The translations under genes and the position numbers were made by a program. From an uncultured Clostridia bacterium (GTDB lineage Bacteria; Bacillota; Clostridia; Oscillospirales; Ruminococcaceae), in contig CANQVG010000009.1 in the NCBI GenBank assembly GCA_947627235.1, positions 2,376 through 66,375 of the forward strand: a stretch of 64,000 nucleotides of DNA, written 5' to 3'. Positions within the stretch are counted from its first letter, which is position 1; each line of letters starts with the position of its first letter. Of the stretch, positions 13,099 to 57,154 are shown one piece after another. Under the pieces are notes generated by a model. It ran no database searches and was not told the origin of the DNA. It was given only the letters and a program-made list of their open reading frames with translations.

Positions 13099-13136
13099 AA
13101 AAATCCGCCCCGACCGAAATCGGGACGGATTTTTTC
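13099..13136. terminator. bidirectional terminator between convergent genes
   Basis: aaaaatccgccccga...tcgggacggattttt, flanked by A and T runs. Confidence 0.7.
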
Positions 13137-20337: not shown

Positions 20338-20522
20338 TTAAAATTCAACAACAATCGGCGGCTAAAAGAGGCTGCCGATTGTGCATTTCTTACAAAATAA
20401 GAAAATATAAATATTTTTTGCAACAATTTGAGCCGAGTCTGACACTATTTAGACAGCGGGAAGCAAAGATGAGCTTAACCGCGGCGGAATTTTCAGCTTT
20501 TGCCAAAAAAACAGGAAAAGGG

Positions 20523-20551
20523 TTGACAAATCCGCCGGACTGTGTTATACT
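20523..20551 (+). promoter_or_regulatory. strong sigma-A promoter of the 512-aa surface-protein gene
   Basis: TTGACA 20523-20528, a 17-nt spacer, then TATACT 20546-20551. Confidence 0.65.
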
Positions 20552-20639
20552 GCTTGTGTCTTGGATTCCCGAGACAAATCAAAATTCCTATACCCGTATA
20601 GGAAAAACCTATCCAAATTTTATAAGGAGGAAAATTACT

Positions 20640-22224: not shown

Positions 22225-22258
22225 CCCCCGCCTGATGCAGACAGGCGGGGGATTTTTT
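22225..22258 (+). terminator. Rho-independent terminator
   Basis: cccccgcctg-atgcaga-caggcggggg followed by a T6 run. Confidence 0.85.
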
Positions 22259-22378: not shown

Positions 22379-22407
22379 TTGACACTAACCTTTCACTTTG
22401 CTATAAT
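22379..22407 (+). promoter_or_regulatory. perfect consensus sigma-A promoter at the head of the 20-kb locus
   Basis: TTGACA 22379-22384, a 17-nt spacer, then TATAAT 22402-22407. Confidence 0.75.
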
Positions 22408-22561
22408 ATAGACGATAAATCGCGATAATCTCAACTGAATATCTGCTTGTGAGAGCAAATATTTATTTTCCGTTTGTGAAAATAGTATTTGCTTAAACTC
22501 GTTTATGAGGTTTGCACTATTGATTTGTGCAGATTGCACAAACACGCCCTGTGGAGGAAAG

Positions 22562-23239
22562 ATGGCAGAAATACTTACGGCCCGAAACGTTGTTCGGGAT
22601 TTTATCATCGGCGACGGAAGCGTGGTTCACGCGCTGAAAGGTGTGAACATTGATGTTGCCGAGGGCAGGCTGACGATTTTAAAAGGACGTTCCGGTTCCG
22701 GCAAGACAACGCTTATAAATATGCTCGGCGCGCTCGACAGACCGACCTCGGGCGAGGTCATCTTTGACGGGCAGGATATCACAAAGCTCAGCGATTCAAA
22801 GCGCGATGAGATAAGACGCTATCAGATGGCTTTTGTGTTCCAGTCGGTGGCGCTTATGAGCTCGATGACGGCTTATGAAAACGTCGACTTCGGGCTGCGT
22901 CTCGCGGGATTCCCTCTCGACAAAAGAAAGGAACGCGTCACGAAGTGTCTTGAAGAAGTCGGACTCGCAAAGAGAATGAATCACCGACCCGGAGAGCTTT
23001 CTGGCGGCGAACAGCAAAGAGTCGCAATAGCGCGCGCTCTTGCCCACGAGCCGAAGATAATCTTTGCCGACGAACCTACCGCCGAGCTTGACTCGGGTAC
23101 GAGTCACCACATCGTCGAGCTTTTCAAGACGCTCGTCCTCGACGAGCATATGACAATAGTAATGACCACGCACGACGTGAGCCTTTTGGAAATCGCCGAC
23201 CGCGTTTATACTCTGGAGGACGGTGAGATAGTTGAGTAA
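22562..23239 (+). CDS. ABC transporter ATP-binding protein (LolD/MacB/FtsE class)
   Basis: The start is taken at [11 protein letters not shown] (GGAGGA RBS). Walker A is [10 protein letters not shown], the signature is [15 protein letters not shown] and Walker B is IIFADEPT. Confidence 0.88.
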
Positions 23240-24194
23240 AAAGAAGCAGAAAAAGCTCGAACACGAGCAGGAACTCATCGCCGAAAGCGAATACGCGATA
23301 GAATGTGAGAACCTCGTAAAAATTTACAAGACCGACCAGATTGAGGTCGTGGCGCTTCAGGGACTCGATTTGCAGGTCAAAAAGGGCGAGCTTGTCGCGA
23401 TAGTAGGCACATCGGGCTCCGGCAAATCGACGCTTCTGAATATGCTCGGCGGGCTCGACAAGCCCTCCGCGGGAAGCCTCACCGTAAACGGCAGGAATCT
23501 TCTGAAATTCACCGAGGAAGACTACATGATTTATAAGCGCAACACCGTCGGATTCGTCTGGCAGAACAATGCGCGAAACCTCGTACCGTATCTGACTGCC
23601 GTGCAGAACGTCGAGCTGCCGATGCTTTTGCAGGGGCAGAAAGAGAGAAGGGCGAGGGCGCTCGAGCTTCTCGAAGCCGTGGGACTCTCGAACAGAATAA
23701 ATTCCCGTCTCGACCAGATGTCGGGCGGCGAGCAGCAAAGGGTCGCGATTGCGATTTCGCTCGCGAATAACCCCGCGATTCTTTTGGCGGACGAACCTAC
23801 GGGTTCGGTGGATACGAAAACCTCTGACCAGCTTTTGCAGGTCTTTAAGGATATAAACGAAAAGCGCGGCGTGACCGTGGTCATAGTTACCCACGACCTG
23901 CGCCTCGCAAAGCAGGTCAACCGTGTTGTCGCCATTCGCGACGGCAGAACTTCGAGCGAGATAATCAAAAAATCTCACGCCGAGATAATGAGCGAATCGA
24001 AGGGCTGGAACAGCGGTGATGCGCAGGAAACCGAGGAGCAGGAGGTTTCGGAGGAGTTGGTTGTTCTGGACAGAACAGGACGCCTGCAAATTCCGAAAGA
24101 GTACCTCGAAGCGCTTGACATCAAGGGCGGCTCTAAGGTAAAGGCGGATCTTGATCTTGAGCAGGAGCGAATTTATATCCACAAAGCTCAATAA
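23232..24194 (+). CDS. ABC transporter ATP-binding protein (LolD/MacB class) with ~90-aa C-terminal extension
   Basis: The TTG start overlaps the upstream gene by 8 nt. Motifs are [25 protein letters not shown] and ILLADEPT. The C-terminal tail has an acidic linker followed by an AbrB/SpoVT-like segment (VVLDRTGRLQIPKEYLEALDIKGGSKVKA). Confidence 0.85.
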   Translation: MSKKKQKKLEHEQELIAESEYAIECENLVKIYKTDQIEVVALQGLDLQVKKGELVAIVGTSGSGKSTLLNMLGGLDKPSAGSLTVNGRNLLKFTEEDYMIYKRNTVGFVWQNNARNLVPYLTAVQNVELPMLLQGQKERRARALELLEAVGLSNRINSRLDQMSGGEQQRVAIAISLANNPAILLADEPTGSVDTKTSDQLLQVFKDINEKRGVTVVIVTHDLRLAKQVNRVVAIRDGRTSSEIIKKSHAEIMSESKGWNSGDAQETEEQEVSEELVVLDRTGRLQIPKEYLEALDIKGGSKVKADLDLEQERIYIHKAQ

Positions 24195-24262: not shown

Positions 24263-27181
24263 GTGAAAGACAAAATGTTCAGGCGTCTGGTGTCGCTCGT
24301 TCTGGTTTTGGCGATGACAGTGCCGACATTGGGAACTGTTTACGCGGACGACAGCGCGTCTGCGGCCGCACAGCCCGTCAGAGAAACATCGGCGCAGTCG
24401 CTTGACGACGAAAACAGAGCCCGCACCTACAGCACCTATTATGACAAGCACGTAGACGACCCGAGACCTAGCGGTCAGTTCGTCATTAAGGGAACCGACT
24501 ATGTATCGGTTTCGGATGATTCCGGAGCCTACGTCGGCGAACTTGAGGGCAGAGAGGCGCTTATATGGCCCGAGGCTACCGGCACAGTGGAATATACTGT
24601 TAATATCGACACTGCCGGAGTTTACGCGATGAAGATGGATTACTGCGCCATTCCGAGCGCGGCGAACAATATCGAGTTCGGCGTGCTGATAGACGGCGAA
24701 AGCCCGTTCGACACCGCGACCCGTATCTCGCTCAGCAAGGTATGGGTAGGTTCGGAGAAGTCGTATGAATACGACGATGCCGGTAATCGCGTCTTTAAGA
24801 AAGACTCCCACGGCAACCAGATAAGACCTACCCTCGCCGAGGGCAGCGGTTGGCAGACCTCTTACTTCAAGGACGGCGACGGTCTGTTTATCGGCCCTCT
24901 GGGCTTCCACTTCACAAAGGGTACTCACACCATCACAATAACCTCCGAAAAAGCGAGATTCGCCATCGGTGAAATCGTGATAGGCAACCCCGAAGAGCTT
25001 AAGCCTGCCGCGAGCGCAGAAAACGTTACCGCGGATGAATCCAAGGCGTCGCAGTCTACCGGAATCTTCGTCTCGATTGAGGGCGAGGATCCCCTGAGCG
25101 CGTCAGATATCACACTTTATCCCACCTACGACCGTTCTACATACCTGACCTCCCCTTCCGACCCCACCAAGATGATTTACAACACCATCGGCAAGGAAAA
25201 CTGGAAGGATTCGGGTCAGAGCGTAACTTGGAATTTCAAGATGGATAAAGCCGGCTGGGTCAAGATAGGCATAAGAGCCAAGCAGGACCAGATGCGCGGT
25301 CTCTATTCCAACCGTACCCTTTACATCGACGGAAAGATCCCCTGCAAGGAAGCGGAACAGATTAAGTTCTACTACTCTACTGTCTGGGATTGCGTATCTC
25401 CCACCGATGCCGACGGCAACGTCCTTTACTTCTATCTTGACGCCGGCGACCACACCCTCACCCTTGAGGCTATGCCGGGAGAGATAGGCGATATCATGCG
25501 TCAGCTTGACGACATCGTCTATTATCTCAACAGCTATTACAGACAGATACTCCAGATAACCAGTCCGTCCCCCGACGAAAACAATACATATATGGTTCAC
25601 AAGCAGATCAACGGTCTTCTTGAGGACTTTGAAAAGTATGCAAATCTTCTTCGCAGCCTTAAGTCGGAGATAGAGGTTCTCGCAGGAACCGAGGGTACCG
25701 AGGCGGTTTCGCTCGATACTATGGCGAAGCTTCTCGAAAGGCTTGTAAAGCGTCCCGACGACATTCCGAGCTGTCTGGGTCAGATAAAGGATAATATTTC
25801 ATCCCTTTCTCAGTGGATGACCGACTACAGAAGCCAGTATCTCGAGGTCGACGTTATCGAGCTTGTCTCTGCCGACAACGATTTCAGCCCTGTCAAGGAA
25901 AAGGGCTTGCAACAGCTCAAGTTCAGCTTCCTTTCTTTCATCGGCTCCTTCTTCGAGGATTACAACGTCCTTTCGGACGAGGATAAATCCGCCCTCAACG
26001 TCTGGGTTTCGCTCGGACGCGATCAGGCGCAGATAGTCAAAGAGCTCGTCGATTCCTACTTTGTCGAGGATACCGGAATAGCGGTCAGCATCAACCTTGT
26101 TCAGGGCGGTATACTTGAATCCACCCTCGCAGGCAAGGGACCTGACGTCGTACTCTTCGTCGGAGGCGACCTCCCGATTCAGCTCGCTGCCCGTGACGTT
26201 TTGGTCGATATCTCCAAGTTCCCCGACTACAAGGAGGTCACAAAGAGATTCGCGCCCAACGTTATGACGCTCTACACTTATCAGGACGGCGTCTACGGTC
26301 TGCCCATTTCTCAGGGCTTCTCGATGATGTTCACCCGCGACGATATCCTCCAGTCCTTCGGCTTTGAAAAGGGTCCGGACACTTGGACGGAGCTTATTGA
26401 TATGCTTCCTACTTTCCAGAGAAGCTATATGGGCGTCGGCTTTAATTTCGACGTCTTCGGAACCTTTATGGTTCAGCGCAATATGGGCTACTACAACTCT
26501 AACAAGACCCAGACGATATTCGATTCTCAGCCGGCGGTAGAGGCGTTCGAGATGTGGACCAAGTTCTACACCACCTACAGCTTCGAGCAGACGTTTGACC
26601 AGTTCACACGTTTCCGCACCGGTGAGTATCCGATAATCATTACCGGCTATACTTTCTATAACCAGCTCTATATGGCGGCTCCCGAAATCCGCGGTCTTTG
26701 GAGCTTCAACCTCATCCCCGGCACTCTCGAGGAGGACGGCACACTTAACCGCTCCACCACCTCTTCTTCTTCCGGCGGAATCATCTTCTCCAAGCTTAGC
26801 GAGGAACAGCAGGCAGATGCTTGGGAGCTTATCAAATGGTTCACCAGCGCCGAGACGCAGTCGGAATACGGCCGCTCGATAGAGGCTCTGCTCGGTCCTC
26901 TCGGACGATTCGACACCGCCAACGTCGAGGCTCTCGGTCAGCTTGCTTGGAGTCAGTCGGAGCTTGCGCTTATCCACGAACAGATGAGCTACACCGTGGA
27001 TATAGACATAATCCCCGCGACATATATCGTAACGAGAGGCATTACCAACGCTTTCAGAGAGACGGTAAACCTCAGTACGAACCCGCGCGATACACTCATT
27101 CAGTATAACCGCGATACAAACGATGAAATCATCAGAAAATATGAGGAACTCGGTATAGATATCGAGATTCCGGAGGAATAA
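24263..27181 (+). CDS. 972-aa secreted fusion: two CBM6/35-like modules + helical region + family-1 extracellular solute-binding domain
   Basis: GTG start with an AAAGGTGGA RBS. The signal peptide ends VYA/DD and has no lipobox Cys. CBM-like blocks are GTVEYTVNIDTAGVYAMKMDYCAIP and SIEGEDP...SVTWNFKMDKAGWVKIGIRAKQ. The C-terminal ~400 aa resemble a sugar SBP (LNVWVSLGRDQAQIVKELV...YQDGVYGLPISQ). Confidence 0.65.
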   Translation: MKDKMFRRLVSLVLVLAMTVPTLGTVYADDSASAAAQPVRETSAQSLDDENRARTYSTYYDKHVDDPRPSGQFVIKGTDYVSVSDDSGAYVGELEGREALIWPEATGTVEYTVNIDTAGVYAMKMDYCAIPSAANNIEFGVLIDGESPFDTATRISLSKVWVGSEKSYEYDDAGNRVFKKDSHGNQIRPTLAEGSGWQTSYFKDGDGLFIGPLGFHFTKGTHTITITSEKARFAIGEIVIGNPEELKPAASAENVTADESKASQSTGIFVSIEGEDPLSASDITLYPTYDRSTYLTSPSDPTKMIYNTIGKENWKDSGQSVTWNFKMDKAGWVKIGIRAKQDQMRGLYSNRTLYIDGKIPCKEAEQIKFYYSTVWDCVSPTDADGNVLYFYLDAGDHTLTLEAMPGEIGDIMRQLDDIVYYLNSYYRQILQITSPSPDENNTYMVHKQINGLLEDFEKYANLLRSLKSEIEVLAGTEGTEAVSLDTMAKLLERLVKRPDDIPSCLGQIKDNISSLSQWMTDYRSQYLEVDVIELVSADNDFSPVKEKGLQQLKFSFLSFIGSFFEDYNVLSDEDKSALNVWVSLGRDQAQIVKELVDSYFVEDTGIAVSINLVQGGILESTLAGKGPDVVLFVGGDLPIQLAARDVLVDISKFPDYKEVTKRFAPNVMTLYTYQDGVYGLPISQGFSMMFTRDDILQSFGFEKGPDTWTELIDMLPTFQRSYMGVGFNFDVFGTFMVQRNMGYYNSNKTQTIFDSQPAVEAFEMWTKFYTTYSFEQTFDQFTRFRTGEYPIIITGYTFYNQLYMAAPEIRGLWSFNLIPGTLEEDGTLNRSTTSSSSGGIIFSKLSEEQQADAWELIKWFTSAETQSEYGRSIEALLGPLGRFDTANVEALGQLAWSQSELALIHEQMSYTVDIDIIPATYIVTRGITNAFRETVNLSTNPRDTLIQYNRDTNDEIIRKYEELGIDIEIPEE

Positions 27182-27197
27182 GGAGGGAGGAATAAAT

Positions 27198-28145
27198 ATG
27201 GCAAAGGAAAAAACCGCAGAAAGAAAGAAGCCCATTGAACCGGGCAGCTGGCGCCACACTCTCCACGAAATGAAGATGAATCAGGCGTGCTACTGGATGA
27301 TGCTTCCTTTCTTCGCACTCTTCACATTCTTCACAGTCATACCGGTCGTCATGTCACTGCCTCTCGGTCTGACCAGCTTCAACCTCGTTCAGTTCCCGCG
27401 CTACATAGGTCTTCAGAATTTCTATTCGCTCTTCGTAAACGACGACGTCTTCCTTATAGCTGTAAAGAATACGCTCATCTTTGCGATATTCACGGGTCCG
27501 TTCTCCTATGTGCTCAGCTTTATACTCGCGTGGCTCATTAACGAGATGAATCCTTTCCTGAAGGTATTCTTCACCTTCGTCTTCTATGCCCCGTCGATGA
27601 CCCCGTCGGCATTCGTTATCTGGCAGCTCGTCTTCTCGGGCGACTCCTACGGATACCTTAACTCGGTGCTTCTCGACCTCGGCATAATCAACACCGCCAA
27701 ACAATGGCTTACCGACGTTACCTATATGATGACAGTTGTCATCATAGTCCAGCTTTGGACTTCAATGGGCGCGGGCTTCCTTGCTCTGCGCGCCGGATTC
27801 CAGGGAATCGACACCTCGCTTTACGAGGCGGGCGCCATCGAAGGAATCCAGAACCGGTTCCAGGAGCTGTTTACCATCACAATCCCCGCGATGGGTCCCT
27901 CGCTTCTGTTCGCCGCCGTTCTTGCGATTTCCGGAGCGTTTACTGTCGGCTCGGTCGGCGCTGCCCTCTGCGGAATGCCGTCTACCGCCTACGCGGTTCA
28001 CACCATTATGAACCACGCGCAGGACTACGGCTCAATACGTTACGAGATGGGTTACGCCTCGGCAATATGCTTCGTACTGTTCGCGGTAATGCTTATATGC
28101 AATAAGATAATCCGCGGAGTGCTGAGCAAATACACCGATAACTAA
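27198..28145 (+). CDS. carbohydrate ABC transporter permease (MalF/LplB-like)
   Basis: 315 aa with six TM segments and an EAA-loop context (YEAGAIEGIQNRFQELFTITIP). Confidence 0.85.
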   Translation: MAKEKTAERKKPIEPGSWRHTLHEMKMNQACYWMMLPFFALFTFFTVIPVVMSLPLGLTSFNLVQFPRYIGLQNFYSLFVNDDVFLIAVKNTLIFAIFTGPFSYVLSFILAWLINEMNPFLKVFFTFVFYAPSMTPSAFVIWQLVFSGDSYGYLNSVLLDLGIINTAKQWLTDVTYMMTVVIIVQLWTSMGAGFLALRAGFQGIDTSLYEAGAIEGIQNRFQELFTITIPAMGPSLLFAAVLAISGAFTVGSVGAALCGMPSTAYAVHTIMNHAQDYGSIRYEMGYASAICFVLFAVMLICNKIIRGVLSKYTDN

Positions 28146-28160
28146 AGGAGGGGAATATAA

Positions 28161-29138
28161 ATGGCTGAAACTTTAGTAAACAACGCCGCGATTACCGACT
28201 CGCTTGAAGCCGAGAACGCAAAGGCGTTAAAGAGGCTGAGAAAGCGTCAGAAGAAAAGAGGAAGCATAGAAAAAGCGAAAGTCAAGAAGTCAAAGGGCAA
28301 GCACATAAACGGCTCCCTCGGCGGCGATATCGCGATATTCATTCTCCTTGCGCTTCTGGGAATTTTCATGCTCTTCCCGCTCTATTATTCGATAATCCAG
28401 TCTTTCAAACCGATAAGCGAGCTGTTCGTATTCCCGCCCAAGCTCTACGTGCTTTCTCCTACGGGAGAAAACTTCTCGAACCTCTTTAAAGTTGCGGGCA
28501 ACCTCTGGGTTCCGTTCTCGAGATACGTGTTCAACTCGGTGTTCATCACCATAGTCATCACGCTTATGCACGTGTTCGTAGTTTGCTGCTGCGCATACTG
28601 CCTCTCGAAGTGCCGCTTCCCGGGATACAACTTCCTTAACCAGCTCATCGTAACCTCGATGCTCTTCACTTCGACCGCGACGTGGATTATGCAGTTCGTC
28701 GTTATGGCGAAAATGCATATGATCAATACCTACTGGGCGCTGATTCTTCCTTCCGTCGCCACTTCGATGGGACTTTACCTGATGCGTCAGAATATGTCGA
28801 CCATCAACGACGCCATAATCGACGCGGCAAAGGTCGACGGCGCGGGCGCGTTCCGCACCTGCTGGCAGGTTGTCATACCCAACCAGAAGCCTGCTATCGC
28901 AACCCTGATAATCTTCGTCTTCCAGGGCGCTTGGAACGTTCAGGGCGGCGCGCTGGTCTACAAAGAAGACCTCAAGACCCTGCCGACAATTATGTCGCAG
29001 ATAGCGGCCTCGGGTATCGCGAGACAGGGCATTATCTACGCATCCGCCGTCGTACTTATGATTCCTCCGCTTGTCATATTCCTCATTGCCCAGAGCAACG
29101 TTATGGAAACCATGGCCAACTCAGGTATGAAGGATTGA
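28161..29138 (+). CDS. carbohydrate ABC transporter permease (MalG-like) with ~55-aa basic N-terminal tail
   Basis: 325 aa. The EAA loop is IDAAKVDGAGAFRTCWQVVIP. The N-terminus is ...KALKRLRKRQKKRGSIEKAKVKKSKGK. Confidence 0.85.
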   Translation: MAETLVNNAAITDSLEAENAKALKRLRKRQKKRGSIEKAKVKKSKGKHINGSLGGDIAIFILLALLGIFMLFPLYYSIIQSFKPISELFVFPPKLYVLSPTGENFSNLFKVAGNLWVPFSRYVFNSVFITIVITLMHVFVVCCCAYCLSKCRFPGYNFLNQLIVTSMLFTSTATWIMQFVVMAKMHMINTYWALILPSVATSMGLYLMRQNMSTINDAIIDAAKVDGAGAFRTCWQVVIPNQKPAIATLIIFVFQGAWNVQGGALVYKEDLKTLPTIMSQIAASGIARQGIIYASAVVLMIPPLVIFLIAQSNVMETMANSGMKD

Positions 29139-29175
29139 TTCTTAAAACCAAAAATACAAAGAAAGGTGATAAGCG

Positions 29176-30846
29176 GTGAGAAAAATGAAAATCAAAAAGC
29201 TACTTAGTATACTGCTCGCTGCGGTTCTTGCCGTTATTATGATGTCGGCAACAGTAAGCGCGGTCGACCCGTATACCACATACAACTACGACGCTTGGTC
29301 CAACGCAATTCCCTCGCAGGCGGGCTATGAGGTAATAGCCACCTATAACGCGGGTACTATGCATCTTGAGCAGCTTTCCGACCCCGAGAGCGAGTTATTC
29401 ATCAGCGAAAATGAGCCGGCAAACCTGTCGGATATGAAGGACTTCTTCCTCTCGCCCAACAACGAATTTTATATAGTAGATACCGGCAACAACCGTGTAA
29501 TCAAAACCGACCTTGAATTTAACCTTCTTGCGTGCTACAAGACCTTCCCCGGAAGCACTTCAAAGCATATAGTGATTGACGAAGAAGGCAACGAAGTCGA
29601 GGTCGACGCCGATGAGCTCAAGTCTCCGTACGGAATCTTCGTCGACGAGAACGACGTAATGTATATCGCCGATAAAGACAATCAGCGCATAGTAAAGTGC
29701 GTTGAGGAGACAAAGACGAGCGCGAGAATACTCAACGAGTACTACCGTCCGGATACCGAGCTTTACGACTCAGTTTCATTCTACTGCACCAAGGTTCTGG
29801 TAGACGCCGCGAAGAACGTCTATGTAATCTGCCCCGCGGTCAACAAGGGCGCTATCATGTTCTCCGATTCCGGCTCTTTCATCGGCTACTACGGCGCCAA
29901 CCGAGTTGAGGTTACGGCCGAGGTCATAAGAAACAAGATCTGGAGAAAGATAGCCTCGGAAGAGCAGCTTGCCTCTCTGATAAGGACTACGCCTGTCGAA
30001 TACGCCAACTTCGATATTGATAAGGAAGGCTTCATCTGGACCGTAACCGAGGTCGCCAACGCCACTACCGACGCCGTCAAAAAGATGAACCCCGCAGGCT
30101 ACAACATCCTTGAAAGAACTGCCGACAATAACCAGTTCGGCGATCAGGTGTCTGTAACCTACAACGGCTCCACCTACGCCACCCGTCTGACAGATATATC
30201 TGTGTCGGACGAGGGATTTGTCAACATTCTCGACTACACCTCGGGCAGAATCTTCCAGTATGACGAACGCTGCAATCAGCTTCTGATATTCGGTTTCGAT
30301 CAAGAAGAACAGCGCGGCGGCTTCTACAACCCCAACGCCATTGAATCCTACGGAGACAATATATACATCCTCGACGGCAGAAACAACGATATCACGGTCT
30401 TCGGTCTGACCGAGTTCGGCAGATATGTACACGAAGCGATTGCGCTTCACAACAAGGGCCTTTACGAGGAAGCGTATGACATCTGGCAGGAGGTTCTCAA
30501 GCGCGACGGCGGCTACTATATGGCGCTCGTCGGAACCGCCAAGGCTCTCTACAATCAGGGCGATTACGAAGGCGCTATGAAATACTCGAAGCTCGCCTTC
30601 ACGGATACCGACTACGACAAGGCTTTTGAAGCCAACCGTCAGGAATCCCTAAGAAAGAACTTCACACTCTACGTTGTCATAATAATAATCGTTGCCATTG
30701 CGTGGATCACGATAAACATTCTCAAGAAAAAGAAAAAGATTCCCGAAAAGCTTATAGCTACGGGCGTTTCCAAAGTCGCTGAAAAGGGCAAAACCTTGAT
30801 TCAGAATATTGCAGAAAACGCTAAGAAAGGGGGCAAGGGTAAATGA
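29176..30846 (+). CDS. type-I membrane protein: signal peptide, NHL-repeat beta-propeller, TPR, C-terminal TM and basic tail
   Basis: NHL-like repeats (FYIVDTGNNRVIKTD, MYIADKDNQRIVKC, IYILDGRNNDITVF). A TPR-like region (YEEAYDIWQEVLKRDGGYYMALVGTAKALYNQGDYEGAMKY). The TM is FTLYVVIIIIVAIAWITINIL, followed by KKKKK. Confidence 0.55.
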   Translation: MRKMKIKKLLSILLAAVLAVIMMSATVSAVDPYTTYNYDAWSNAIPSQAGYEVIATYNAGTMHLEQLSDPESELFISENEPANLSDMKDFFLSPNNEFYIVDTGNNRVIKTDLEFNLLACYKTFPGSTSKHIVIDEEGNEVEVDADELKSPYGIFVDENDVMYIADKDNQRIVKCVEETKTSARILNEYYRPDTELYDSVSFYCTKVLVDAAKNVYVICPAVNKGAIMFSDSGSFIGYYGANRVEVTAEVIRNKIWRKIASEEQLASLIRTTPVEYANFDIDKEGFIWTVTEVANATTDAVKKMNPAGYNILERTADNNQFGDQVSVTYNGSTYATRLTDISVSDEGFVNILDYTSGRIFQYDERCNQLLIFGFDQEEQRGGFYNPNAIESYGDNIYILDGRNNDITVFGLTEFGRYVHEAIALHNKGLYEEAYDIWQEVLKRDGGYYMALVGTAKALYNQGDYEGAMKYSKLAFTDTDYDKAFEANRQESLRKNFTLYVVIIIIVAIAWITINILKKKKKIPEKLIATGVSKVAEKGKTLIQNIAENAKKGGKGK

Positions 30847-31478
30847 TTTATGATATGAAACCGTGGCAATGGGTAAAGCACGTTATCTTCCACCCGACCG
30901 AGGGCTATGAGGATATGAGATGGAAAAAAGCCGGCTCGCTCAAAATCGCTTTCTTCATCGTTTTCCTGCTCTTCTGCTCTCAGGTATTCTCCTCGAGATA
31001 CGGCGGATTTGCCTATAATATGAAGGCTTATTCCGACGTGTTCAATATCGTCCCGATTCTCGTGCAGTCGGTTGCCTACTACGCCACATGGGTAGTCGCC
31101 AACTGGAGTATCTGCACCCTGTTCGACGGCGAGGGAAATATGCGCAGAGTAGCCATTTACACAGCATACGCTCTGGTTCCGTACATCGTCTGCAACTTCC
31201 TTGCGACCCTTGTATCCTACGGAATCACACTCGACGAAAGCATCTGGTATACCGCGATATCCCAGCTCGGACTGTGGTGGTCGGTGATTCTGATGGTCTT
31301 CGGAATGAAGGCGTGCCATCAGTACAGCTTCACAATGACCATCGTAAGTATGATTTGCACCGTGCTCGGTATGGTGCTTATCCTCTGCCTGTTGGCACTG
31401 GTTATGTCGCTCTTCCAGCAGGTATATGTTTTCTTCGTAACGATTTACACCGAAATACTCTACAGAGTTAGAAGCTGA
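30843..31478 (+). CDS. Yip1-domain-like polytopic membrane protein
   Basis: 211 aa with about five TM segments and a 4-nt ATGA overlap with the upstream gene. The sequence pattern resembles bacterial YIP1 family proteins; this is from recall, not a search. Confidence 0.5.
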   Translation: MIYDMKPWQWVKHVIFHPTEGYEDMRWKKAGSLKIAFFIVFLLFCSQVFSSRYGGFAYNMKAYSDVFNIVPILVQSVAYYATWVVANWSICTLFDGEGNMRRVAIYTAYALVPYIVCNFLATLVSYGITLDESIWYTAISQLGLWWSVILMVFGMKACHQYSFTMTIVSMICTVLGMVLILCLLALVMSLFQQVYVFFVTIYTEILYRVRS

Positions 31479-31500
31479 CACAGCAGAAAGTGAGTAAATT

Positions 31501-34065
31501 ATGAAAAACGTATTTCTAAGATTACTGGCTTGCCTGCTTGCGGCGGCAATCCTGATATCAGTAGCGGCAATTCCCGCTTTTGCCGATGAAAACGAAGCGG
31601 GCGCGGACGCTCAGGCAGATTCTGCCGATGTCCCCGAAGAAGAAGCCGACGGTGAAGAAAACGCTCCTGCCGACGGGGAAACCCCTCCGGTCGGAGAAGG
31701 TGAAGAACCCGCCGACGGCGAAGCTCCGGCTGAAAACGGCGAAGCTCCCGAAGGCAGCGAAGAAACCCCTGCGGACGGTGAAGAAGCTCCCGCAGAGGAC
31801 GAAGCTCCTGCCGATGAGACAGTAGGCGAGGAAGGAAGCGATTTCGAAGCCACGTCGGCTCTCATCACCGACGAGGAGGCTATGGCTTCCTGCCAGGTAG
31901 CAGCCGAGAACGACAGCTTTATCCTCTACTACGACCCCGGAGTTGAGGACGCGGAAATAGAAAGAATCGGAATTTATGTCAAGTCTACCGGCGAGATTAT
32001 CTGGACCAACCCGATAAACGCGCTCGCCGACAGCTCCACCGAAAAGTCGAGCCTCCGTGAAAACCGTCTCTCCAATATTTCCTACAAGTACGGCAACGCC
32101 ACCGACCTTATCACCTCCTCGGCGTTCCTGTACTCATACCGTCAGTCCACCTCACGCGGCAATACCAAAATGGAACCCGTAGACGGCGGACTCAAGGTCA
32201 CCTACAGGCTCCAGACCGCAAACGCCACCGTTCCCGTATACTTTATGCTTGAGGACGGTTACATCGACGTCTACGTCAACACCAACGAGATAAAGGAATC
32301 CAGCGGTTACGACCCGGAGATCGAGGACGACCAGTCGAAATCAAGCGACACCATTATCCTCACCGAGCTGGGTATTCTGCCCTATGTCGGCGCAGCCACA
32401 ACCGACGATGAAGGCTATATGCTTATCCCCGACGGTTCCGGCGCGGTTATCAAGCTCAATAACGGAAAGGGCAATTATTCGGATTATTCCCAGCCTGTCT
32501 ACGGGCGCGACATTACTCAGGTAAGAGAAAACGCTCCCGACCAGACTGAGCAGTCGAATCTTCCGGTAATGGCAATGGTCAAGGGCAAGACCGGTCTTGT
32601 CACGATAGCCGCCTACGGCGACACTTTCGCCAACGCGAACGCCTCGGTTGCCTATTCCAAGAGCGAGAACTCGTGGTATAATAACTGCTACTTTTCCTTT
32701 ACGCTCCGCTCAAACGACAACTACTATATGACCGGTGATTCCACCGCGATCATAGTCTTTGAAAAGGGCGACGGAACTATAGGCGTACCGAAGGTAGGCG
32801 TAAGGCTCTATCCCGTTGTTGCCAAGGGCGACACCGTCACCGTTGCTGAGATAGCCGACGTTTACAGAAACTACCTCATTGAGGAAAAGGGTCTTAAAAA
32901 GCAGGATTCGGCTTCCGAACCCGCGCTGTATATCGACTTCTATGGCGGCACCCGCAAGTCGAAGTCGATACTCGGTATCCCGATAGGACTCAAAACCGCC
33001 TTTACCTCCTTTAACGACGCCGCCGACATAGTCGCGCGTCTTCAGGAACTCGGAGTCGACAGTCTGGTTGTCAACTATAACGACTGGTCCGACGATTCGA
33101 TGGGCAAGAAGGTAGACACAGGTTCGTCGATAGCTTCCGTACTCGGCGGAAAGAGTGACTACAAGAAGATGCTCAAGGCGTTTTCCGATACCGGCGTCGA
33201 TTACTACGCCACCGTTTCGGGCATCACCTTCAGCTCTAACGGCAACGGCTTCTGGACTTTGTTCAACACCGCTTACAGAGTTTCAAAGTCCTATTCGAGA
33301 CAGTATACCTATAATATAGCCTACGGCACTCCCGACTCGGGTATAGCTCCCGCGCTTCTCAGCCCGAGGTCGATTGAAAAACTGTCGGAAAAAGTCACCA
33401 AGAACCTCGGAAAATATGAGCAGGGCGCAGGTCTCGGACTTGTTTCCAACACTCTCTGGAGTGACTTTTCCAATAAATACCGCACCAACCGTTATGCAAC
33501 CGCTCAGTACATAATCGACTACTATAAAGCGGCGGCAGAGTCGAACGGCAAGGTCATAGCGGACGCGCCGAATGCCTATATTATCCCGTATGTCAACAGA
33601 GTCAAAAACCTGACCCTCCAGTCGAGCCAGTTCAAGGTGAGCGACTACGATGTTCCGTTCTATCAGATGGTTCTTCACGGATATGTAGACTATGCTTCGG
33701 AAGCCGTGAACGGCACACCCGACACCACGGCGGCGGTTCTCAAGGCTATAGCGGCGGGCTCGAACATCCACTTTGATTTCATCAACGAAGACGCGACCGA
33801 GCTTGTCAATACCGATTATGTAGACCTGTTCTACTGCACCGCTAACGGATGGCTCGACGAAGCAGCCGGAGCATACAAGCTCGTCAAAGAGGTTCTGACT
33901 CCTGCCACAGGCGCTACCATTACCGATTACACCGTTGACGGCAGTGTGATTACCACCACCTACTCCAACGGCTATAAGACCGTTGTTGATCTCGGCGCCG
34001 GAAACATAACCGCCGGCGGCAAGACCTATAACTACACCGAATACGTCAAAGGAGGTAAGGACTAA
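31501..34065 (+). CDS. 854-aa secreted protein with acidic low-complexity linker; DUF5696-like (from recall)
   Basis: The signal peptide ends AFA/DE. Residues ~30-115 are E/A/P/G/D-rich with a recurring PADGE motif, followed by a ~730-aa globular region. There is no anchor motif. Confidence 0.4.
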   Translation: MKNVFLRLLACLLAAAILISVAAIPAFADENEAGADAQADSADVPEEEADGEENAPADGETPPVGEGEEPADGEAPAENGEAPEGSEETPADGEEAPAEDEAPADETVGEEGSDFEATSALITDEEAMASCQVAAENDSFILYYDPGVEDAEIERIGIYVKSTGEIIWTNPINALADSSTEKSSLRENRLSNISYKYGNATDLITSSAFLYSYRQSTSRGNTKMEPVDGGLKVTYRLQTANATVPVYFMLEDGYIDVYVNTNEIKESSGYDPEIEDDQSKSSDTIILTELGILPYVGAATTDDEGYMLIPDGSGAVIKLNNGKGNYSDYSQPVYGRDITQVRENAPDQTEQSNLPVMAMVKGKTGLVTIAAYGDTFANANASVAYSKSENSWYNNCYFSFTLRSNDNYYMTGDSTAIIVFEKGDGTIGVPKVGVRLYPVVAKGDTVTVAEIADVYRNYLIEEKGLKKQDSASEPALYIDFYGGTRKSKSILGIPIGLKTAFTSFNDAADIVARLQELGVDSLVVNYNDWSDDSMGKKVDTGSSIASVLGGKSDYKKMLKAFSDTGVDYYATVSGITFSSNGNGFWTLFNTAYRVSKSYSRQYTYNIAYGTPDSGIAPALLSPRSIEKLSEKVTKNLGKYEQGAGLGLVSNTLWSDFSNKYRTNRYATAQYIIDYYKAAAESNGKVIADAPNAYIIPYVNRVKNLTLQSSQFKVSDYDVPFYQMVLHGYVDYASEAVNGTPDTTAAVLKAIAAGSNIHFDFINEDATELVNTDYVDLFYCTANGWLDEAAGAYKLVKEVLTPATGATITDYTVDGSVITTTYSNGYKTVVDLGAGNITAGGKTYNYTEYVKGGKD

Positions 34066-35093
34066 TGGCTGAAACCAACAATGCGGCTGTCGAGACTGCT
34101 CCCGAGGTCAAGGCTGAAAAGGTAAAGACCCCAAAGGCTCCTAAGCCCGCAAAAGCCGAAAAGGCTCCCAAAGAGCCAAAGGTCAAAAGTCAGAAAGGTC
34201 TTCGTATTCCATATGAAAAGCGTAAAGCGCTGTACGCTTACGGCTTTCTGGCAATCTGGATCATCGGTTCTCTGTATTTCTTCATAAGGCCGCTCCTCGT
34301 ATCGCTTTGGTATTCATTTAACGAAACCGCGGTTAAGCTGGGCTATATGGAAACAAAGTTCATCGGTATCCGGAACTACATCTCGGCATTTCGTGAGAAC
34401 ACCGAATACACCGAAGCCCTCCTTGCGGTTCTCTCAAATACCGCTTGGAAGACCCCGCTTATAATCATCTTCTCGATATTCATAGCGGTAATACTTAACC
34501 AGAAGTTCCGCGGCAGAACCTTTGCCCGTGCGGTATTCTTCCTCCCCGTTATCATAGCGACCGGTCCTGTTTTAAGCATAATCAACGGCGATATGGACAC
34601 GTCGGGATATTCGGGAGGCGCCGAGCAGTTCTCCACGATGTTCGAGACGGATATGACGGGCGCTCTGTTCAACTTCCTCGGAGTTTACAACATAAGCGAT
34701 AAAGTCACGGATATGATTTCAACGGTCACCTCCAACGTCTTCAATCTTGTGTGGAACTCCGGTATCCAGATAATTATATTCCTTTCGGCATTGCAGAATA
34801 TACCTTATTCGGCTAAGGAAGCCGCCTCCATTGAGGGTGCAACCGCTTGGGAGTTCTTCTGGAAAATCACTATCCCATACATCAGCCCGATGATAGTTAC
34901 CAACCTTATCTACACCATAGTCGACTCCTTCATTGACCCGAACAACAGCGTTATGACGCTGGTTCTGGATAGGGCGTCAAAATGGTATCACGGGCAATCG
35001 GCGGCAATGGCGTGGGCATACTTTTTGATAGTAATTCTCGCGCTCTGCATAGTTTTGCCGATAATCAACAAATTTGTTTACTACGAAGTATAA
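34065..35093 (+). CDS. carbohydrate ABC transporter permease (MalF-like) with K/P/A-rich N-terminal tail
   Basis: 1-nt overlap with the upstream stop. The N-terminus is KAEKVKTPKAPKPAKAEKAPKEPKVKSQK. It has six TM segments and the EAA context KEAASIEGATAWEFFWKITIP. Confidence 0.82.
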   Translation: MAETNNAAVETAPEVKAEKVKTPKAPKPAKAEKAPKEPKVKSQKGLRIPYEKRKALYAYGFLAIWIIGSLYFFIRPLLVSLWYSFNETAVKLGYMETKFIGIRNYISAFRENTEYTEALLAVLSNTAWKTPLIIIFSIFIAVILNQKFRGRTFARAVFFLPVIIATGPVLSIINGDMDTSGYSGGAEQFSTMFETDMTGALFNFLGVYNISDKVTDMISTVTSNVFNLVWNSGIQIIIFLSALQNIPYSAKEAASIEGATAWEFFWKITIPYISPMIVTNLIYTIVDSFIDPNNSVMTLVLDRASKWYHGQSAAMAWAYFLIVILALCIVLPIINKFVYYEV

Positions 35094-35107
35094 GGGAGGG
35101 ATATTGA

Positions 35108-36265
35108 ATGGCAACCGCAAAAGAAGAAAGACTGTTCGCCAAAGAGCGTGAAAAAGCTCTTAAAGAGCGCGCTAAGGCTTATAAAGCAGCCAAAAAGGCG
35201 GGTACTCTTGACGAACGCATTATCTCGCCCGAGCATATCAGATATATGCGCCGCAGAGCGATTATCAGCAAGGTTTGGCCCTTCTTCCGTTTCCTGATAC
35301 TGTTCGGCCTCTGCTTCGTAATTCTCTATCCCCTTATCTACATGTTTTCCACGGCATTCAGACCCAACGTTCAGATGAACGACCCGTCGGTCATCTGGCT
35401 GCCTAAGTCGTTTACCATCAGCAACATGATAGATGTCTGGGAGACTATGGACTTCGGTCCCACCCTCTGGAACACCATTAAGCTCAACATCGTCTGCTCA
35501 CTTCTCTCGGTAGTTGTATGCGCGCTCACCGGCTACGGTCTCGCGAGATTCAACTTCAAGGGAAAAGGTATCTGCTTCGCGCTGGTCATTATGCAGATAA
35601 TCGTTCCTCCGCAGATAACCGTTATACCTCTTTATCTGCAATATGCCTTCTTCAAGGGCTTCGGTCTTATAAAGCTTCTGCACGTTCTCGGTCTGAAACA
35701 GATTGTTTACAGCGCATCTCAGCAGCCCAAGCCCATTCAGGAGATTATGGATCCCGTAACCAACGCTGGTACGGGGCAGTGGTACGTTTCGCTCATCAAT
35801 ATTCCGATAGTTATGTATGCCCCCGCGATTTTCGCAAACGGCATCAAGTCGGGTCTGTTTATCTTCATCTTCCGTCAGTTCTTCCGCGGACTGCCGATAG
35901 AGCTTGAAGACGCCGCCTATCTCGACGGCTGCGGCCCGTTCAAGACATTTATCAGAATTATGGTTCCTAACGCTTCCACTTCGTTCCTCACGGTCTTCCT
36001 CTTCGCAATAGTCTGGTACTGGAACGACTTCTACGTGAGTTCGACGTTCTTCACGAGTAACCATACCGTCGCGCTTCAGCTGCGAAAGCTTTCGGATTCG
36101 CTCGACCAACGACTGTTCAGCGGTCAGCAGGTCGGCACGAGAAAGAAAATCGTCTGGCTTGAGTCAGGATGTCTTTTGTCAATAGCGCCGATTCTCGTTA
36201 TGTATGTGTTCTTGCAGAAATACTTCACCGAGGGTCTTGCAAGGTCCGGTCTTACCGGTATGTAA
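35108..36265 (+). CDS. carbohydrate ABC transporter permease (MalG-like) with basic N-terminal tail and an enlarged extracytoplasmic loop
   Basis: 385 aa. The N-terminus is KEERLFAKEREKALKERAKAYKAAKKAG. The EAA context is LEDAAYLDGCGPFKTFIRIMVP. Confidence 0.82.
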   Translation: MATAKEERLFAKEREKALKERAKAYKAAKKAGTLDERIISPEHIRYMRRRAIISKVWPFFRFLILFGLCFVILYPLIYMFSTAFRPNVQMNDPSVIWLPKSFTISNMIDVWETMDFGPTLWNTIKLNIVCSLLSVVVCALTGYGLARFNFKGKGICFALVIMQIIVPPQITVIPLYLQYAFFKGFGLIKLLHVLGLKQIVYSASQQPKPIQEIMDPVTNAGTGQWYVSLINIPIVMYAPAIFANGIKSGLFIFIFRQFFRGLPIELEDAAYLDGCGPFKTFIRIMVPNASTSFLTVFLFAIVWYWNDFYVSSTFFTSNHTVALQLRKLSDSLDQRLFSGQQVGTRKKIVWLESGCLLSIAPILVMYVFLQKYFTEGLARSGLTGM

Positions 36266-36309: not shown

Positions 36310-36350
36310 AAAATCTTAATATGGAAAAGTCTGCGGGAGTGTTGTTTAAA

Positions 36351-37949
36351 ATGAATAGATTTATAATAATGCTCCTCTGCGGGCTTATTTTGCTGTCGGG
36401 ATGCTCTTACGAAACTCCTTTGCAGACCGGCGCCGGCGAATTGTCGGACGCTGCATCACAAAGCCGGTCTGAAAGTGTCGGGCAAACAACGGTTTCAGAA
36501 TATCAAAGCACGTCGGAAACAACCGTTTTGCCGGAGCCGCAGGTCCCGCACTATCAGGAGATAGCGGCAGTTAAGGTCGACTACGAACAGACGGAGGTTC
36601 GTCAGTTCATTGAGGCTGAGGACGGAATCATAGGCGGCGGCGCCGAAAAGACCGACTCCCGCGAGGGGTATTCGGGCAGCGGATGCGTCTTTGGAATATT
36701 CGGCGGCGGAAGCGTTGTGCTTGAAGCACAGATACCCGCGCCGCAGCATTACAGCATAACCGTAAGGGCTGCGTCCGACACGCAGGCGTCCGCGAGCTTC
36801 ACGGTAAACGGCGTATCCCGAGGAGAATTTACGGTCTCGGGCAGCGGCGACTTCGAGGCGGTAAGGTTTGACAACATCTACCTGACAAAGGGGACCGTGC
36901 AATTCGGCTTTACGGATTTCAGCGCCGATATATACCTTGACTGCATACTGATCGAGGATTCGGAGGACGTTCTGAATCTGAGCTATAAGACAGGCGGCGC
37001 GCTCTCTAACAGGTATAGCGACGAAAGCGCAAAAAAGCTTTACGGCTACCTGATGTCCTGCTATGGAAGCAGGGTTTTAAGCGGGCAGCAGTGCTCGCAG
37101 GGCAGCAATTCCGAGCTTGACGCCGTGTATGAGTTGACAGGAAGATACCCCGCGATACGCTTCGGCGAGCTTATGGACTATACTGTCGGCGGCGACACGG
37201 GAGACATCGAGCTTGCGCTTGACTGGGCAAAGTCGGGAGGAATAGTAGGCTATGTCTGGAACTGGCCGATGGCAGGTTCGGTATATCAGAGCCGTACCGC
37301 TTTCGACCTTGAAAAGGCGGTTACTTCTTTAGACATCGCCGCTATGGAAGACGGCGCTCTCGCTATGAGGTATGACGCCGGAGACATTTCCGCGGAGACC
37401 CTCGCTGTGATAGACGGTATCGACAGGGTTGCCCGGCAGCTTTTGAGACTGCATGATGCGGGAGTTGCGGTGATTTTCAGACCGCTGCCTGAGGCGAGCA
37501 GCGGGCAGTTCTGGTGGTCAAAGAGCGTCGAAAGCTATCTTTGGCTTTATCGCCTCATATATGAGCGTATGACCCTTTACTGGGACCTCGGCAATCTTAT
37601 CTGGGTCTGGAACGGTCAAAACGCAGAATGGTACGTCGGCGACAGTTTTGCCGACATAATTTCGCTCGACATTTATTACCCCGAGAGCGAAGCTCCCGCT
37701 CAGCCGAGCGGAATAAACTTTATGCTCGCGGCTGCAAAGATTTCAGCCGAAAAGCCCGCAGCCATAAGCGAATGTTCCGACCTGCCGAACCCCGACAGCA
37801 TCGCCGTTGACAGGGCATACTGGAGCTTCTGCTCCGCTTGGACCGGCGACTATGCAGTCGGCGGTAAATATATGCAGGACAGCGAGTGGGTGCAGTTTTA
37901 CAACAGCGAAATAGTTATCGCTAAGGATGAAATTGAATACAATGGGTAA
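36351..37949 (+). CDS. lipoprotein: CBM6/35-like module + GH26-like catalytic domain
   Basis: The start is taken at MNRFIIMLLCGLILLSGC (lipobox). The CBM-like block is FIEAEDGIIGGGA...GYSGSGCV...HYSITVRAAS. GH26-like motifs are VIFRPLPEASSGQFWW, LIWVWNGQ, ISLDIYYPE and AISECS. Confidence 0.6.
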   Translation: MNRFIIMLLCGLILLSGCSYETPLQTGAGELSDAASQSRSESVGQTTVSEYQSTSETTVLPEPQVPHYQEIAAVKVDYEQTEVRQFIEAEDGIIGGGAEKTDSREGYSGSGCVFGIFGGGSVVLEAQIPAPQHYSITVRAASDTQASASFTVNGVSRGEFTVSGSGDFEAVRFDNIYLTKGTVQFGFTDFSADIYLDCILIEDSEDVLNLSYKTGGALSNRYSDESAKKLYGYLMSCYGSRVLSGQQCSQGSNSELDAVYELTGRYPAIRFGELMDYTVGGDTGDIELALDWAKSGGIVGYVWNWPMAGSVYQSRTAFDLEKAVTSLDIAAMEDGALAMRYDAGDISAETLAVIDGIDRVARQLLRLHDAGVAVIFRPLPEASSGQFWWSKSVESYLWLYRLIYERMTLYWDLGNLIWVWNGQNAEWYVGDSFADIISLDIYYPESEAPAQPSGINFMLAAAKISAEKPAAISECSDLPNPDSIAVDRAYWSFCSAWTGDYAVGGKYMQDSEWVQFYNSEIVIAKDEIEYNG

Positions 37950-39145: not shown

Positions 39146-39193
39146 CCGTTACAATACGACATCCCTTTGCCGACCATTTCAGGAGGACACTAA

Positions 39194-42013: not shown

Positions 42014-42034
42014 CCTTATAAAGGGCGTAATATA

Positions 42035-42457: not shown

Positions 42458-42497
42458 AAATAAATCGGGAACTGCTTTCGGCGTTCCCGATTTATTT
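42456..42497. terminator. bidirectional terminator closing the 20-kb locus and the convergent two-component genes
   Basis: aaaaataaatcgggaac...gttcccgatttatttt. Confidence 0.8.
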
Positions 42498-42526
42498 TAC
42501 ATATTGTAATTTTTACTCTAATTATA

Positions 42527-55676: not shown

Positions 55677-55737
55677 ACTTTCAGAAAAGCGCCCCTGCTT
55701 TGAAACCGCAGGGGCAGTACTTTATGAGGACAATACA

Positions 55738-57141: not shown

Positions 57142-57154
57142 GGAGGCGGAAAAT

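Follow-up and report, generated by a model that had tools for sequence, protein, structure and literature searches.

Importers of the CUT1 type, such as MalEFGK2 and UgpBAEC (Transporter Classification 3.A.1.1), are ATP-binding cassette (ABC) transporters that combine a MalE-like (class B/D) solute-binding protein (SBP) with one MalF/UgpA-like and one MalG/UgpE-like permease, both with EAA coupling loops, in the gene order SBP-permease-permease, and with a MalK/UgpC/MsmX-type ATPase carrying OB and TOBE domains. Gram-positive polysaccharide utilization loci (PULs) of gut Firmicutes and Bifidobacteria couple a surface glycoside hydrolase (GH) to an ABC importer, and a sugar ABC importer accompanied by a surface glycosidase is already known as a general kind. 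Here we describe a locus within a 64,000-nucleotide stretch of DNA (hereafter the window) from an uncultured Clostridia bacterium of the Ruminococcaceae (GenBank assembly GCA_947627235.1, contig CANQVG010000009.1, positions 2,376 to 66,375 of the forward strand), in which eight consecutive genes form a genuine and strictly conserved module, not described before, that occurs in Firmicutes of gut, rumen and soil and probably serves sugar uptake. What is new is its fixed architecture, comprising two permease pairs, a giant secreted SBP, a unit made up of an NHL/TPR protein and a Yip1 protein, a predicted enzyme of the DUF5696 family with a GH129/GH101-like fold, and ATPase classes that appear interchangeable.

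The eight open reading frames (ORFs) are on the + strand, and an ORF list places them at 24263–36265, exactly as in a preliminary description of the region. They encode the giant SBP (24263–27181; 972 residues), permeases A1 (27198–28145; MalF/UgpA-like, matching BPD_transp_1, UgpA and GlcT) and B1 (28161–29138; MalG/UgpE-like, UgpE E-value 8.8e-29) of the first pair, the NHL/TPR protein (29176–30846; 556 residues, Pfam NHL and TPR), the Yip1 protein (30843–31478; 211 residues, Pfam Yip1 E-value 1.7e-15), the DUF5696 protein (31501–34065; 854 residues, Pfam E-value 2.6e-137), and permeases A2 (34065–35093; UgpA-like, matching BPD_transp_1 and UgpA) and B2 (35108–36265; MalG-like, BPD_transp_1 E-value 7.7e-11) of the second pair. 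Reading the sequence directly, the Yip1 gene is translationally coupled to the NHL/TPR gene through an ATGA overlap at 30843–30846, and the DUF5696 stop and A2 start codons share a single base at 34065 (TAATG) behind an AGGAGG ribosome-binding site; the remaining gaps are 14–37 nt by their coordinates. The order, domain content and coupled junctions proposed previously are thus borne out by coordinates, Pfam and the sequence itself, and hydropathy agrees with the view that the three genes sandwiched between the permease pairs encode extracytoplasmic or polytopic proteins, with a signal and C-terminal transmembrane (TM) helix in the NHL/TPR protein, a polytopic Yip1 protein, and an N-terminal hydrophobic helix in DUF5696; the SBP has such an N-terminal helix as well.

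A metagenome scan returned 568 relatives, from which the best 80 loci were kept and their ORFs mapped with hidden Markov models (HMMs). There are about 70 informative loci, with DUF5696 proteins falling into 49 clusters at 90% identity, 31 at 70% and 7 at 50%, and every locus with enough flank is colinear (SBP-A1-B1-NHL-Yip1-DUF5696-A2-B2) with zero exceptions. A genome scan gave the same order, preceded by two ATPase genes (n1 and n2, described below), in 15 of 15 loci from rabbit- and human-gut Clostridia, Ruminococcus and Oscillospiraceae metagenome-assembled genomes (MAGs); the nearest relatives are uncultured Clostridia MAGs from rabbit gut ('Lapin'). Four remoter DUF5696 proteins (35–39% identity) sit in an identical eight-gene order with unrelated flanks, and the only two matches in PLSDB, with 29% and 22% DUF5696 identity, also have the same gene order. 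In Butyrivibrio fibrisolvens D1 pNP243 a GH43 gene is followed by the module and then by two ordinary SBP genes, with a divergent sensor kinase/regulator pair upstream, and in Paenibacillus cellulosilyticus ugpC is followed by the module. Flanking genes are otherwise unrelated from locus to locus and include ribosomal genes, tRNA synthetases, GH95, GH43 and carbamoyl-phosphate synthase. A second search of PLSDB using the Paenibacillus protein as query recovered the same two records only, a scan of viral contigs found no relatives, and a profile search of a protein collection (profile A1) extended no further than the initial one. The family context sampled is the nearer part of the DUF5696 family plus two distant members, and the family as a whole, counted as representatives at 50% identity, numbers 5321 with E ≤ 1e-3 and 3467 with E ≤ 1e-30.

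The distance matrices of all eight genes correlate with r values of 0.87–0.96, and the genes have therefore been inherited as one block. The preliminary description held that such a combination recurs in annotations of Clostridia and Paenibacillus, and the Butyrivibrio and Paenibacillus records show that it does; the scattering of the genes in related genomes, which would have spoken against a unit, is not seen in the roughly 70 informative loci or in either of these genera. Public annotations label the module genes singly. In the literature library searched we found no description of the module or of its three accessory proteins, in keeping with the earlier remark that no role has been characterized, and specifically no mention of DUF5696/PF18952 or of a YIP1 family, NHL repeat and solute-binding protein combination.

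All four permeases match BPD_transp_1 in Pfam and UgpA/UgpE, MalF/MalG and GlcT/GlcU in NCBIfam, and EAA coupling loops are present in all four translations (e.g. YEAGAIEG...IP in A1 and DAAKVDGAG...IP in B1). The permease complement of a CUT1 importer is therefore present twice, as A1/B1 and A2/B2, whereas CUT1 importers do not have two permease pairs per single SBP. A2 carries a cytoplasmic N-terminal extension rich in Lys, Ala and Pro, and B2 has both an N-terminal extension and an internal insertion. Because A1 and A2 share only 21% identity, and B1 and B2 25–29% over parts of their lengths, the two pairs are, as judged by sequence, old and distinct, and a recent duplication is rejected. 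The absence of a cognate SBP for the second pair, noted previously, holds in the window and in about 70 related loci but not in Butyrivibrio, where the two SBP genes (501 and 536 residues; locus L101, 15853–19283) directly follow the pair; this is the sole locus seen with extra SBPs.

The giant SBP was correctly recognized beforehand as a fusion, but its carbohydrate-binding module (CBM)-like and helical architecture had been missed. Pfam matches to SBP_bac_8 (E-value 2e-22) and SBP_bac_1 (E-value 1.2e-14) are confined to residues 590–870 of 972, in the C-terminal 40% of the protein. An AlphaFold model (pLDDT 82) has a signal peptide, a first beta-sandwich at about residues 70–245, a second at about 265–405, a four-helix bundle at 407–523, and a MalE-like domain at 528–972, for which the top Foldseek matches are oligosaccharide SBPs (e.g. 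5ysb, TM-score 0.83, to the C-terminal half only), as expected of the solute-binding component of a CUT1 importer. A permissive Pfam search (E-values up to 10) gives weak CBM35, DUF5077 and Golvesin_C signals in the beta-sandwich region of the N-terminal half. The 1179 SBP homologues are nearly all 965–1000 residues long. Unlike the SBPs of CUT1 importers, those of the module (about 970–1080 residues) have two beta-sandwiches and a helical bundle and are secreted with no lipid anchor. An A-x-A site, in which one alanine (A28) is invariant, terminates the signal peptide, and no lipobox cysteine is present, so that the SBP is probably released from the membrane. Release from a monoderm cell would in turn require some other means of retention.

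The protein encoded between Yip1 and A2, previously called DUF5696-like, is a bona fide DUF5696 member, scoring 459 bits against the Pfam PF18952 cut-off of 25.6 and spanning positions 3–607 of the 612-position model. Its AlphaFold model (pLDDT 78, pTM 0.80) has an N-terminal hydrophobic helix, an acidic disordered linker of about 90 residues, a beta-sandwich, a (beta/alpha)8-like domain and a C-terminal beta domain. The top-ranking family in a Foldseek search is GH129 (5opq, E-value 4e-27, target TM-score 0.68), followed by GH101, GH36 and GH31, all of which are families of retaining alpha-glycosidases; matches to these families have probability 1.0 and target TM-scores of 0.68–0.73 (0.72 for NagBb, 5wzp). 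The DUF5696 model shares the three-domain fold of the GH129/GH101 enzymes, which include the alpha-N-acetylgalactosaminidase NagBb, the 3,6-anhydro-D-galactosidase ZgGH129 and EngBF/SpGH101, with E-values from 4e-27 to 1e-14. In contrast, identity to these enzymes is only 10–13%, by sequence DUF5696 is not a member of GH129 or GH101, and its most conserved motif lies in the beta-sandwich domain. We know of no GH129 or GH101 enzyme embedded between permease genes.

An alignment of 141 diverse DUF5696 members shows a single invariant acidic residue, D311 in the PDGSG motif of the beta-sandwich domain (100%). About 97% of the members have an acidic residue at 715–717, and 81% have D655, which belongs to an L-Y-S-D-F motif that otherwise aligns well. 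From its modeled structure DUF5696 is a predicted surface glycosidase, in a family of no recognized GH membership, and the residue pattern suggests that part of the family may be non-catalytic. No fusions of DUF5696 to transporter parts occur among the long family members, which have only FIVAR or unassigned N-terminal extensions. The preliminary description had set its proposal against the outcome that the 854-residue protein is a known GH with no linkage to the permeases; what we find is a GH fold, no known GH family by sequence, and strict linkage to the permease genes.

The NHL/TPR protein has an N-terminal signal, an ectodomain, a single C-terminal TM helix (residues 498–516) and a basic cytoplasmic tail by hydropathy, and repeated D-x-x-N-x-R NHL motifs and TPR residues are conserved among 27 sequences. 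The Yip1 protein is polytopic, with a conserved HPxEG..D.RWKK motif in its cytoplasmic N-terminus. The two are fused into a single protein in Paenibacillus (719 residues) and in several Oscillospiraceae lines (681–715 residues), from which we conclude that NHL and Yip1 act as one unit. A separate feature is seen in a Ruminococcus-like clade (L008, L009, L010, L014 and L022), where the NHL/TPR ORF is about 690 residues rather than about 555 and Yip1 stays a separate 211-residue gene; this extension is distinct from the NHL-Yip1 fusions seen elsewhere. In Bacillus subtilis YknWXYZ, which consists of a Yip1 protein, an adaptor, a LolD-like ATPase and an FtsX permease, the Yip1 protein YknW modulates assembly of the transporter complex (PMC4887032). 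The window Yip1 is similarly encoded with ABC transporter parts, but is tied or fused to an NHL propeller and sits between type I importer permeases, and the adaptor and FtsX components are absent from most module loci.

The operon is larger than the eight genes to which the preliminary description confined it, as a promoter and two upstream ATPase genes had been missed. A strong terminator of the preceding gene (22225–22251; a 10-pair stem with 9 G-C pairs) is followed by a + strand promoter at 22379–22407 (TTGACA-17-TATAAT, agreeing with the consensus at 12 of 12 positions and preceded at the −10 element by an extended TG) and a structured 5′ leader of about 150 nt (22414–22561) whose folding has a z-score of −2.7 relative to shuffled sequence. 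Within the leader, a hairpin with arms AGCAAATAT...AGTATTTGCTT is conserved in eight relatives, with a variable loop and three covarying pairs, and a perfect palindrome (TTGTGCA-N3-TGCACAA; 22525–22541) lies 20–40 nt ahead of the start codon. The palindrome has a single copy in the window and is kept 5′ of n1 in nine loci (L001, L002, L005, L006, L007, L011, L013, L015 and L103). An Rfam scan of 20–43 kb gave nothing credible and no match to the leader. The leader and palindrome may be an operator or RNA control element for the operon. Downstream, a terminator scan found no convincing + strand terminator before about 38 kb.

The two genes behind the leader, n1 and n2, encode ABC ATPases. The ORF of n1 mechanically begins at 22505, although translation probably starts at the ATG at 22562, which a GGAGG site precedes, giving a 225-residue product (22562–23239, + strand; ABC_tran E-value 4e-35); n2 overlaps the end of n1 and encodes 320 residues (23232–24194, + strand; ABC_tran E-value 5.5e-33), including a C-terminal extension of about 75 residues that is weakly AbrB/MazE-like (a weak MazE_antitoxin match at residues 279–306). 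The SBP gene begins 68 nt beyond n2. The two ATPases are 41% identical and their catalytic motifs are intact (Walker A and B, Q-loop, signature and H-loop in n1). The top NCBIfam and Protein Data Bank (PDB) matches of n1 are LolD, MJ0796, MacB, YtrE and Mycobacterium tuberculosis DppD/OppD, and those of n2 in the PDB are M. tuberculosis OppD Rv1281c (207 bits) and LolD (200 bits). No MalK-type ATPase ranks among the best matches, and the OB_MalK and TOBE domains are absent. Where CUT1 importers have a MalK/UgpC/MsmX ATPase the window thus has two LolD/OppD-class proteins, and because neither carries OB or TOBE domains we class the operon as CUT1-like rather than as a canonical member.

These genes lie 5′ of the module in 9 of the 31 clusters, down to 30% DUF5696 identity, and the lineages that carry them form a basal grade in a rough neighbor-joining tree of DUF5696, with one large derived clade lacking them. 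Loci L103 and L104, whose whole neighborhoods are visible, have the ten-gene unit by itself; in these and in L023, L048, L096 and L011/L015 there is no FtsX or HlyD gene within 7–10 kb, and the genes downstream of the module in the latter four are unrelated. In most lineages neither the ATPases nor a pump adjoins the module. In the lineages carrying them, n1 and n2 therefore most likely belong to the module as its own ATPases, and they may additionally serve an FtsX permease that is encoded downstream in the window and has no ATPase gene of its own. A pairing of such ATPases with type I permeases has precedent, as their class includes the type I peptide importer ATPases M. tuberculosis OppD and DppD. 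The Opp/Dpp peptide importers (OppABCD and DppABCD of M. tuberculosis) likewise have two distinct ATPase genes with a type I importer, and OppD/DppD are among the best structure matches of n1 and n2, but the module SBP and permeases are CUT1-like rather than of the SBP_bac_5 or OppB/C type, the C-terminal extension of n2 is a different one, and there are four permease genes for two ATPase genes. In Paenibacillus a UgpC gene, with OB_MalK and TOBE_2 domains and thus of the type found in CUT1 importers, is directly upstream of the module; because this MalK-type ATPase occupies the same position as n1/n2, the energizing subunit appears to be interchangeable between ATPase classes.

Partial rate covariation across 36 lineages, with the shared signal removed, gives some indication of which parts work together. 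The known heterodimers, as positive controls, rank highest (A2-B2, partial r 0.65; A1-B1, 0.55), followed by SBP-DUF5696 (0.42) and SBP-NHL (0.41). DUF5696 covaries with A2 (0.36) and B2 (0.31) and not with A1 (−0.01) or B1 (−0.08), whereas the corresponding values for the first pair are 0.36 for A1-Yip1 and 0.31 for B1-NHL. These values fit a scheme in which DUF5696 would partner the second permease pair and NHL/Yip1 the first, but the evidence is weak: the effects are modest, adjacent genes may share a recombination history, and Mantel p-values are at their floor for many pairs. For n1 and n2, available in 20 lineages, the signs are mixed (n1 with B1, B2 and NHL; n2 with SBP and DUF5696, and negatively with B2) and the values are uninterpretable.

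On balance, and with modest confidence, we favor the view that the operon is a self-contained, ten-gene system of CUT1-like design, working at the cell surface to capture, cleave and import a glycan, and that it combines the importer with a membrane scaffold and a built-in glycosidase-fold protein. Gene linkage, folds and fusions are what we observe, and from them we infer the following steps. The secreted giant SBP would capture a glycan at the cell surface through its two CBM-like beta-sandwiches, with the MalE-like domain then binding oligosaccharide. DUF5696, which the N-terminal helix and long acidic linker would keep at the membrane, would cleave the glycan as a retaining alpha-glycosidase-like enzyme. 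Cleavage products would then enter through two different permease heterodimers, A1B1 and A2B2, and NHL/TPR and Yip1 would act as a single membrane scaffold keeping the unanchored SBP and the enzyme beside the permeases. Energy would be provided by n1 and n2 in the window lineage, by the MalK/UgpC-type ATPase in Paenibacillus, and presumably by a shared ATPase in the many other lineages with no ATPase gene in the locus.

Several points weigh against this scheme. The scaffold role of NHL/TPR-Yip1 is purely inferred, and n1 and n2 might alternatively energize the double-FtsX permease encoded further downstream. Pfam assigns no GH family to DUF5696, its C-terminal half included, at E-values up to 10, and sequence searches of solved structures with either the single sequence or a 35-sequence profile return low-complexity noise only, with no match by phmmer or HMM. 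In about 19% of DUF5696 members position 655 is occupied by N, S, H or some other residue in place of D, and the SBP shows no covariation with either permease pair, the values with A1 and B1 being near zero or negative. The module has no consistent linkage to a regulator, sugar kinase or cytoplasmic glycosidase, and the housekeeping context is unusual for a catabolic locus.

An alternative that we consider unlikely, yet worth setting out, is that import through the second pair is coupled directly to the enzyme, with DUF5696 replacing the SBP of A2B2, docking onto it, and passing its product or ligand into the channel, while the SBP and NHL/TPR-Yip1 serve A1B1 only. The DUF5696 gene is always directly 5′ of A2-B2, which is the usual position of an SBP gene, and is translationally coupled to A2; the window and some 70 related loci have no second SBP gene; the covariation of DUF5696 with A2/B2 and not A1/B1, and the converse for A1-Yip1 and B1-NHL, are as this would predict; and the members without D655 keep the remaining fold, which fits a binding role. 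The Butyrivibrio locus argues otherwise, since the two ordinary SBP genes after A2-B2 indicate that A2B2 is probably a conventional SBP-dependent permease, and the covariation could reflect shared recombination tracts, given modest effects when even the positive controls reach only 0.55–0.65. We also know of no SBP-independent type I sugar importer. The suggestion in the preliminary description that DUF5696 is a delivery partner of the second pair is thus weakly favored by gene position, covariation and the missing second SBP, and opposed by the Butyrivibrio SBP genes. A combined form, in which DUF5696 replaces the SBP on A2B2 and the NHL/TPR-Yip1 scaffold tethers the unanchored SBP to A1B1, giving a supercomplex that acts as an enzyme-gated importer without a classical SBP, seems to us quite unlikely; to our knowledge, enzyme-gated substrate delivery has not been described for ABC importers.

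A role in the cell envelope, in which the module builds, remodels or recycles a surface glycopolymer of the cell itself together with a MacB-like HlyD-FtsX pump resembling YknWXYZ, with Yip1 as an accessory and n1/n2 as the pump ATPases, is in our view distinctly improbable. It draws on the presence in the window operon of all four YknWXYZ component types (Yip1, HlyD adaptor, FtsX permease and LolD-like ATPases), on the recurrence of the n1-n2-module-HlyD-FtsX order in the L026-L044 group, a clade whose DUF5696 shares only 39% identity with that of the window, and on the housekeeping neighbors, perfect-consensus promoter and lack of a local sugar regulator or catabolic gene. However, just 3 of the 31 clusters have HlyD-FtsX behind the module, the pair is absent within 7–10 kb in many loci that retain n1-n2, and most lineages have neither the ATPases nor the pump beside the module; the usual absence of the pump genes makes this role less likely. 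The permeases and SBP are moreover of the importer type, and the Butyrivibrio copy adjoins a GH43 gene and a sensor kinase/regulator pair, as do catabolic loci. Insertion of the module into a MacAB-like operon, such that n1-n2 belong to HlyD-FtsX, was likewise considered and is less likely, as n1-n2 persist without FtsX within 7–10 kb and mark a basal grade. The possibility that two independent sugar ABC importers and three unrelated genes are simply chance neighbors would accommodate the old paralogy of the permease pairs (21–29% identity), each of which seems complete, but it is scarcely credible: order and content are identical over 31 clusters from three bacterial families with unrelated flanks, junctions overlap or are 14–37 nt long, NHL and Yip1 are fused in places, and distance matrices correlate at r ≥ 0.87. 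With the order kept in every related locus with sufficient flank, we regard a chance arrangement as excluded.

Whichever of these roles applies, the module departs from described systems in several respects. It adds three obligatory genes (NHL/TPR, Yip1 and DUF5696) to the components of a CUT1 importer. As in Gram-positive PULs, an extracellular glycosidase-fold protein is encoded with a sugar ABC importer, and GH26, GH43 or GH95 genes are sometimes adjacent; PULs are usually mosaic, in contrast, whereas the core of the module is invariant in content and order across families, its enzyme lies outside the recognized GH families, no regulator or cytoplasmic catabolic gene accompanies it consistently, and the NHL/TPR-Yip1 unit has no counterpart. 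Prevalent Oscillospiraceae and Ruminococcus from human gut, rabbit gut and rumen carry the module, with 956 member sequences in one 90% cluster, and so do Butyrivibrio and Paenibacillus. If it is indeed a capture, cleavage and import system, DUF5696 would found a new GH family related in fold to GH129/GH101, and the module would be a widespread glycan-harvesting device of Firmicutes with a fixed architecture. The arrangement raises the questions of why there are two permease dimers per SBP, how a secreted and unanchored SBP is retained by a monoderm, what the bacterial Yip1 protein does, and whether MalK-type and LolD/OppD-type ATPases can both drive the same permeases. Hosts of the module that can be cultivated include P. 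cellulosilyticus KACC 14175, B. fibrisolvens D1 and Ruminococcus flavefaciens.

Immediately downstream of B2 is a gene for a GH26 lipoprotein (36321–37949, + strand; Glyco_hydro_26 E-value 2.9e-34, a mannanase family) with the lipobox LLSGC. It is found only in the closest clade, with 40–69% identity compared with 80–97% for the permeases of the same genomes, and because it diverges fast and is absent from remoter loci it looks like a lineage-specific add-on under different selection, outside the core module. The HlyD-type adaptor identified by Pfam (38096–39145, + strand) and the double-FtsX permease (39194–42013, + strand; 939 residues with ten hydrophobic segments) then form a MacB-like pair, for which the nearest ATPase genes are n1/n2, 14 kb upstream and transcribed in the same direction. 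Beyond the pair lie convergent genes for a HAMP histidine kinase and an OmpR-type regulator (region 38096–44627 as a whole), as in peptide-antibiotic sensing modules.

Upstream, an ORF of 599 codons (20379–22178), with a likely start near 20640 and thus probably encoding about 512 residues, specifies a surface protein with an N-terminal signal-like helix, an acidic Pro/Glu-rich stalk and a C-terminal TM anchor; it has no Pfam or NCBIfam match. We considered it as a possible part of the module and rejected it, as it has its own promoter-like site (20523–20551) and strong terminator, and homologues only upstream of the module in the closest relatives. The remaining genes of the window are housekeeping genes, and no further SBP or sugar-catabolic gene is among them. 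Elsewhere, a choloylglycine (bile salt) hydrolase family protein is encoded on the − strand at 13135–14106, which fits a gut origin, and an MBOAT O-acyltransferase gene followed by one for a DHHW protein (55597–58255, + strand) forms a pair that suggests acylation of a surface polymer.

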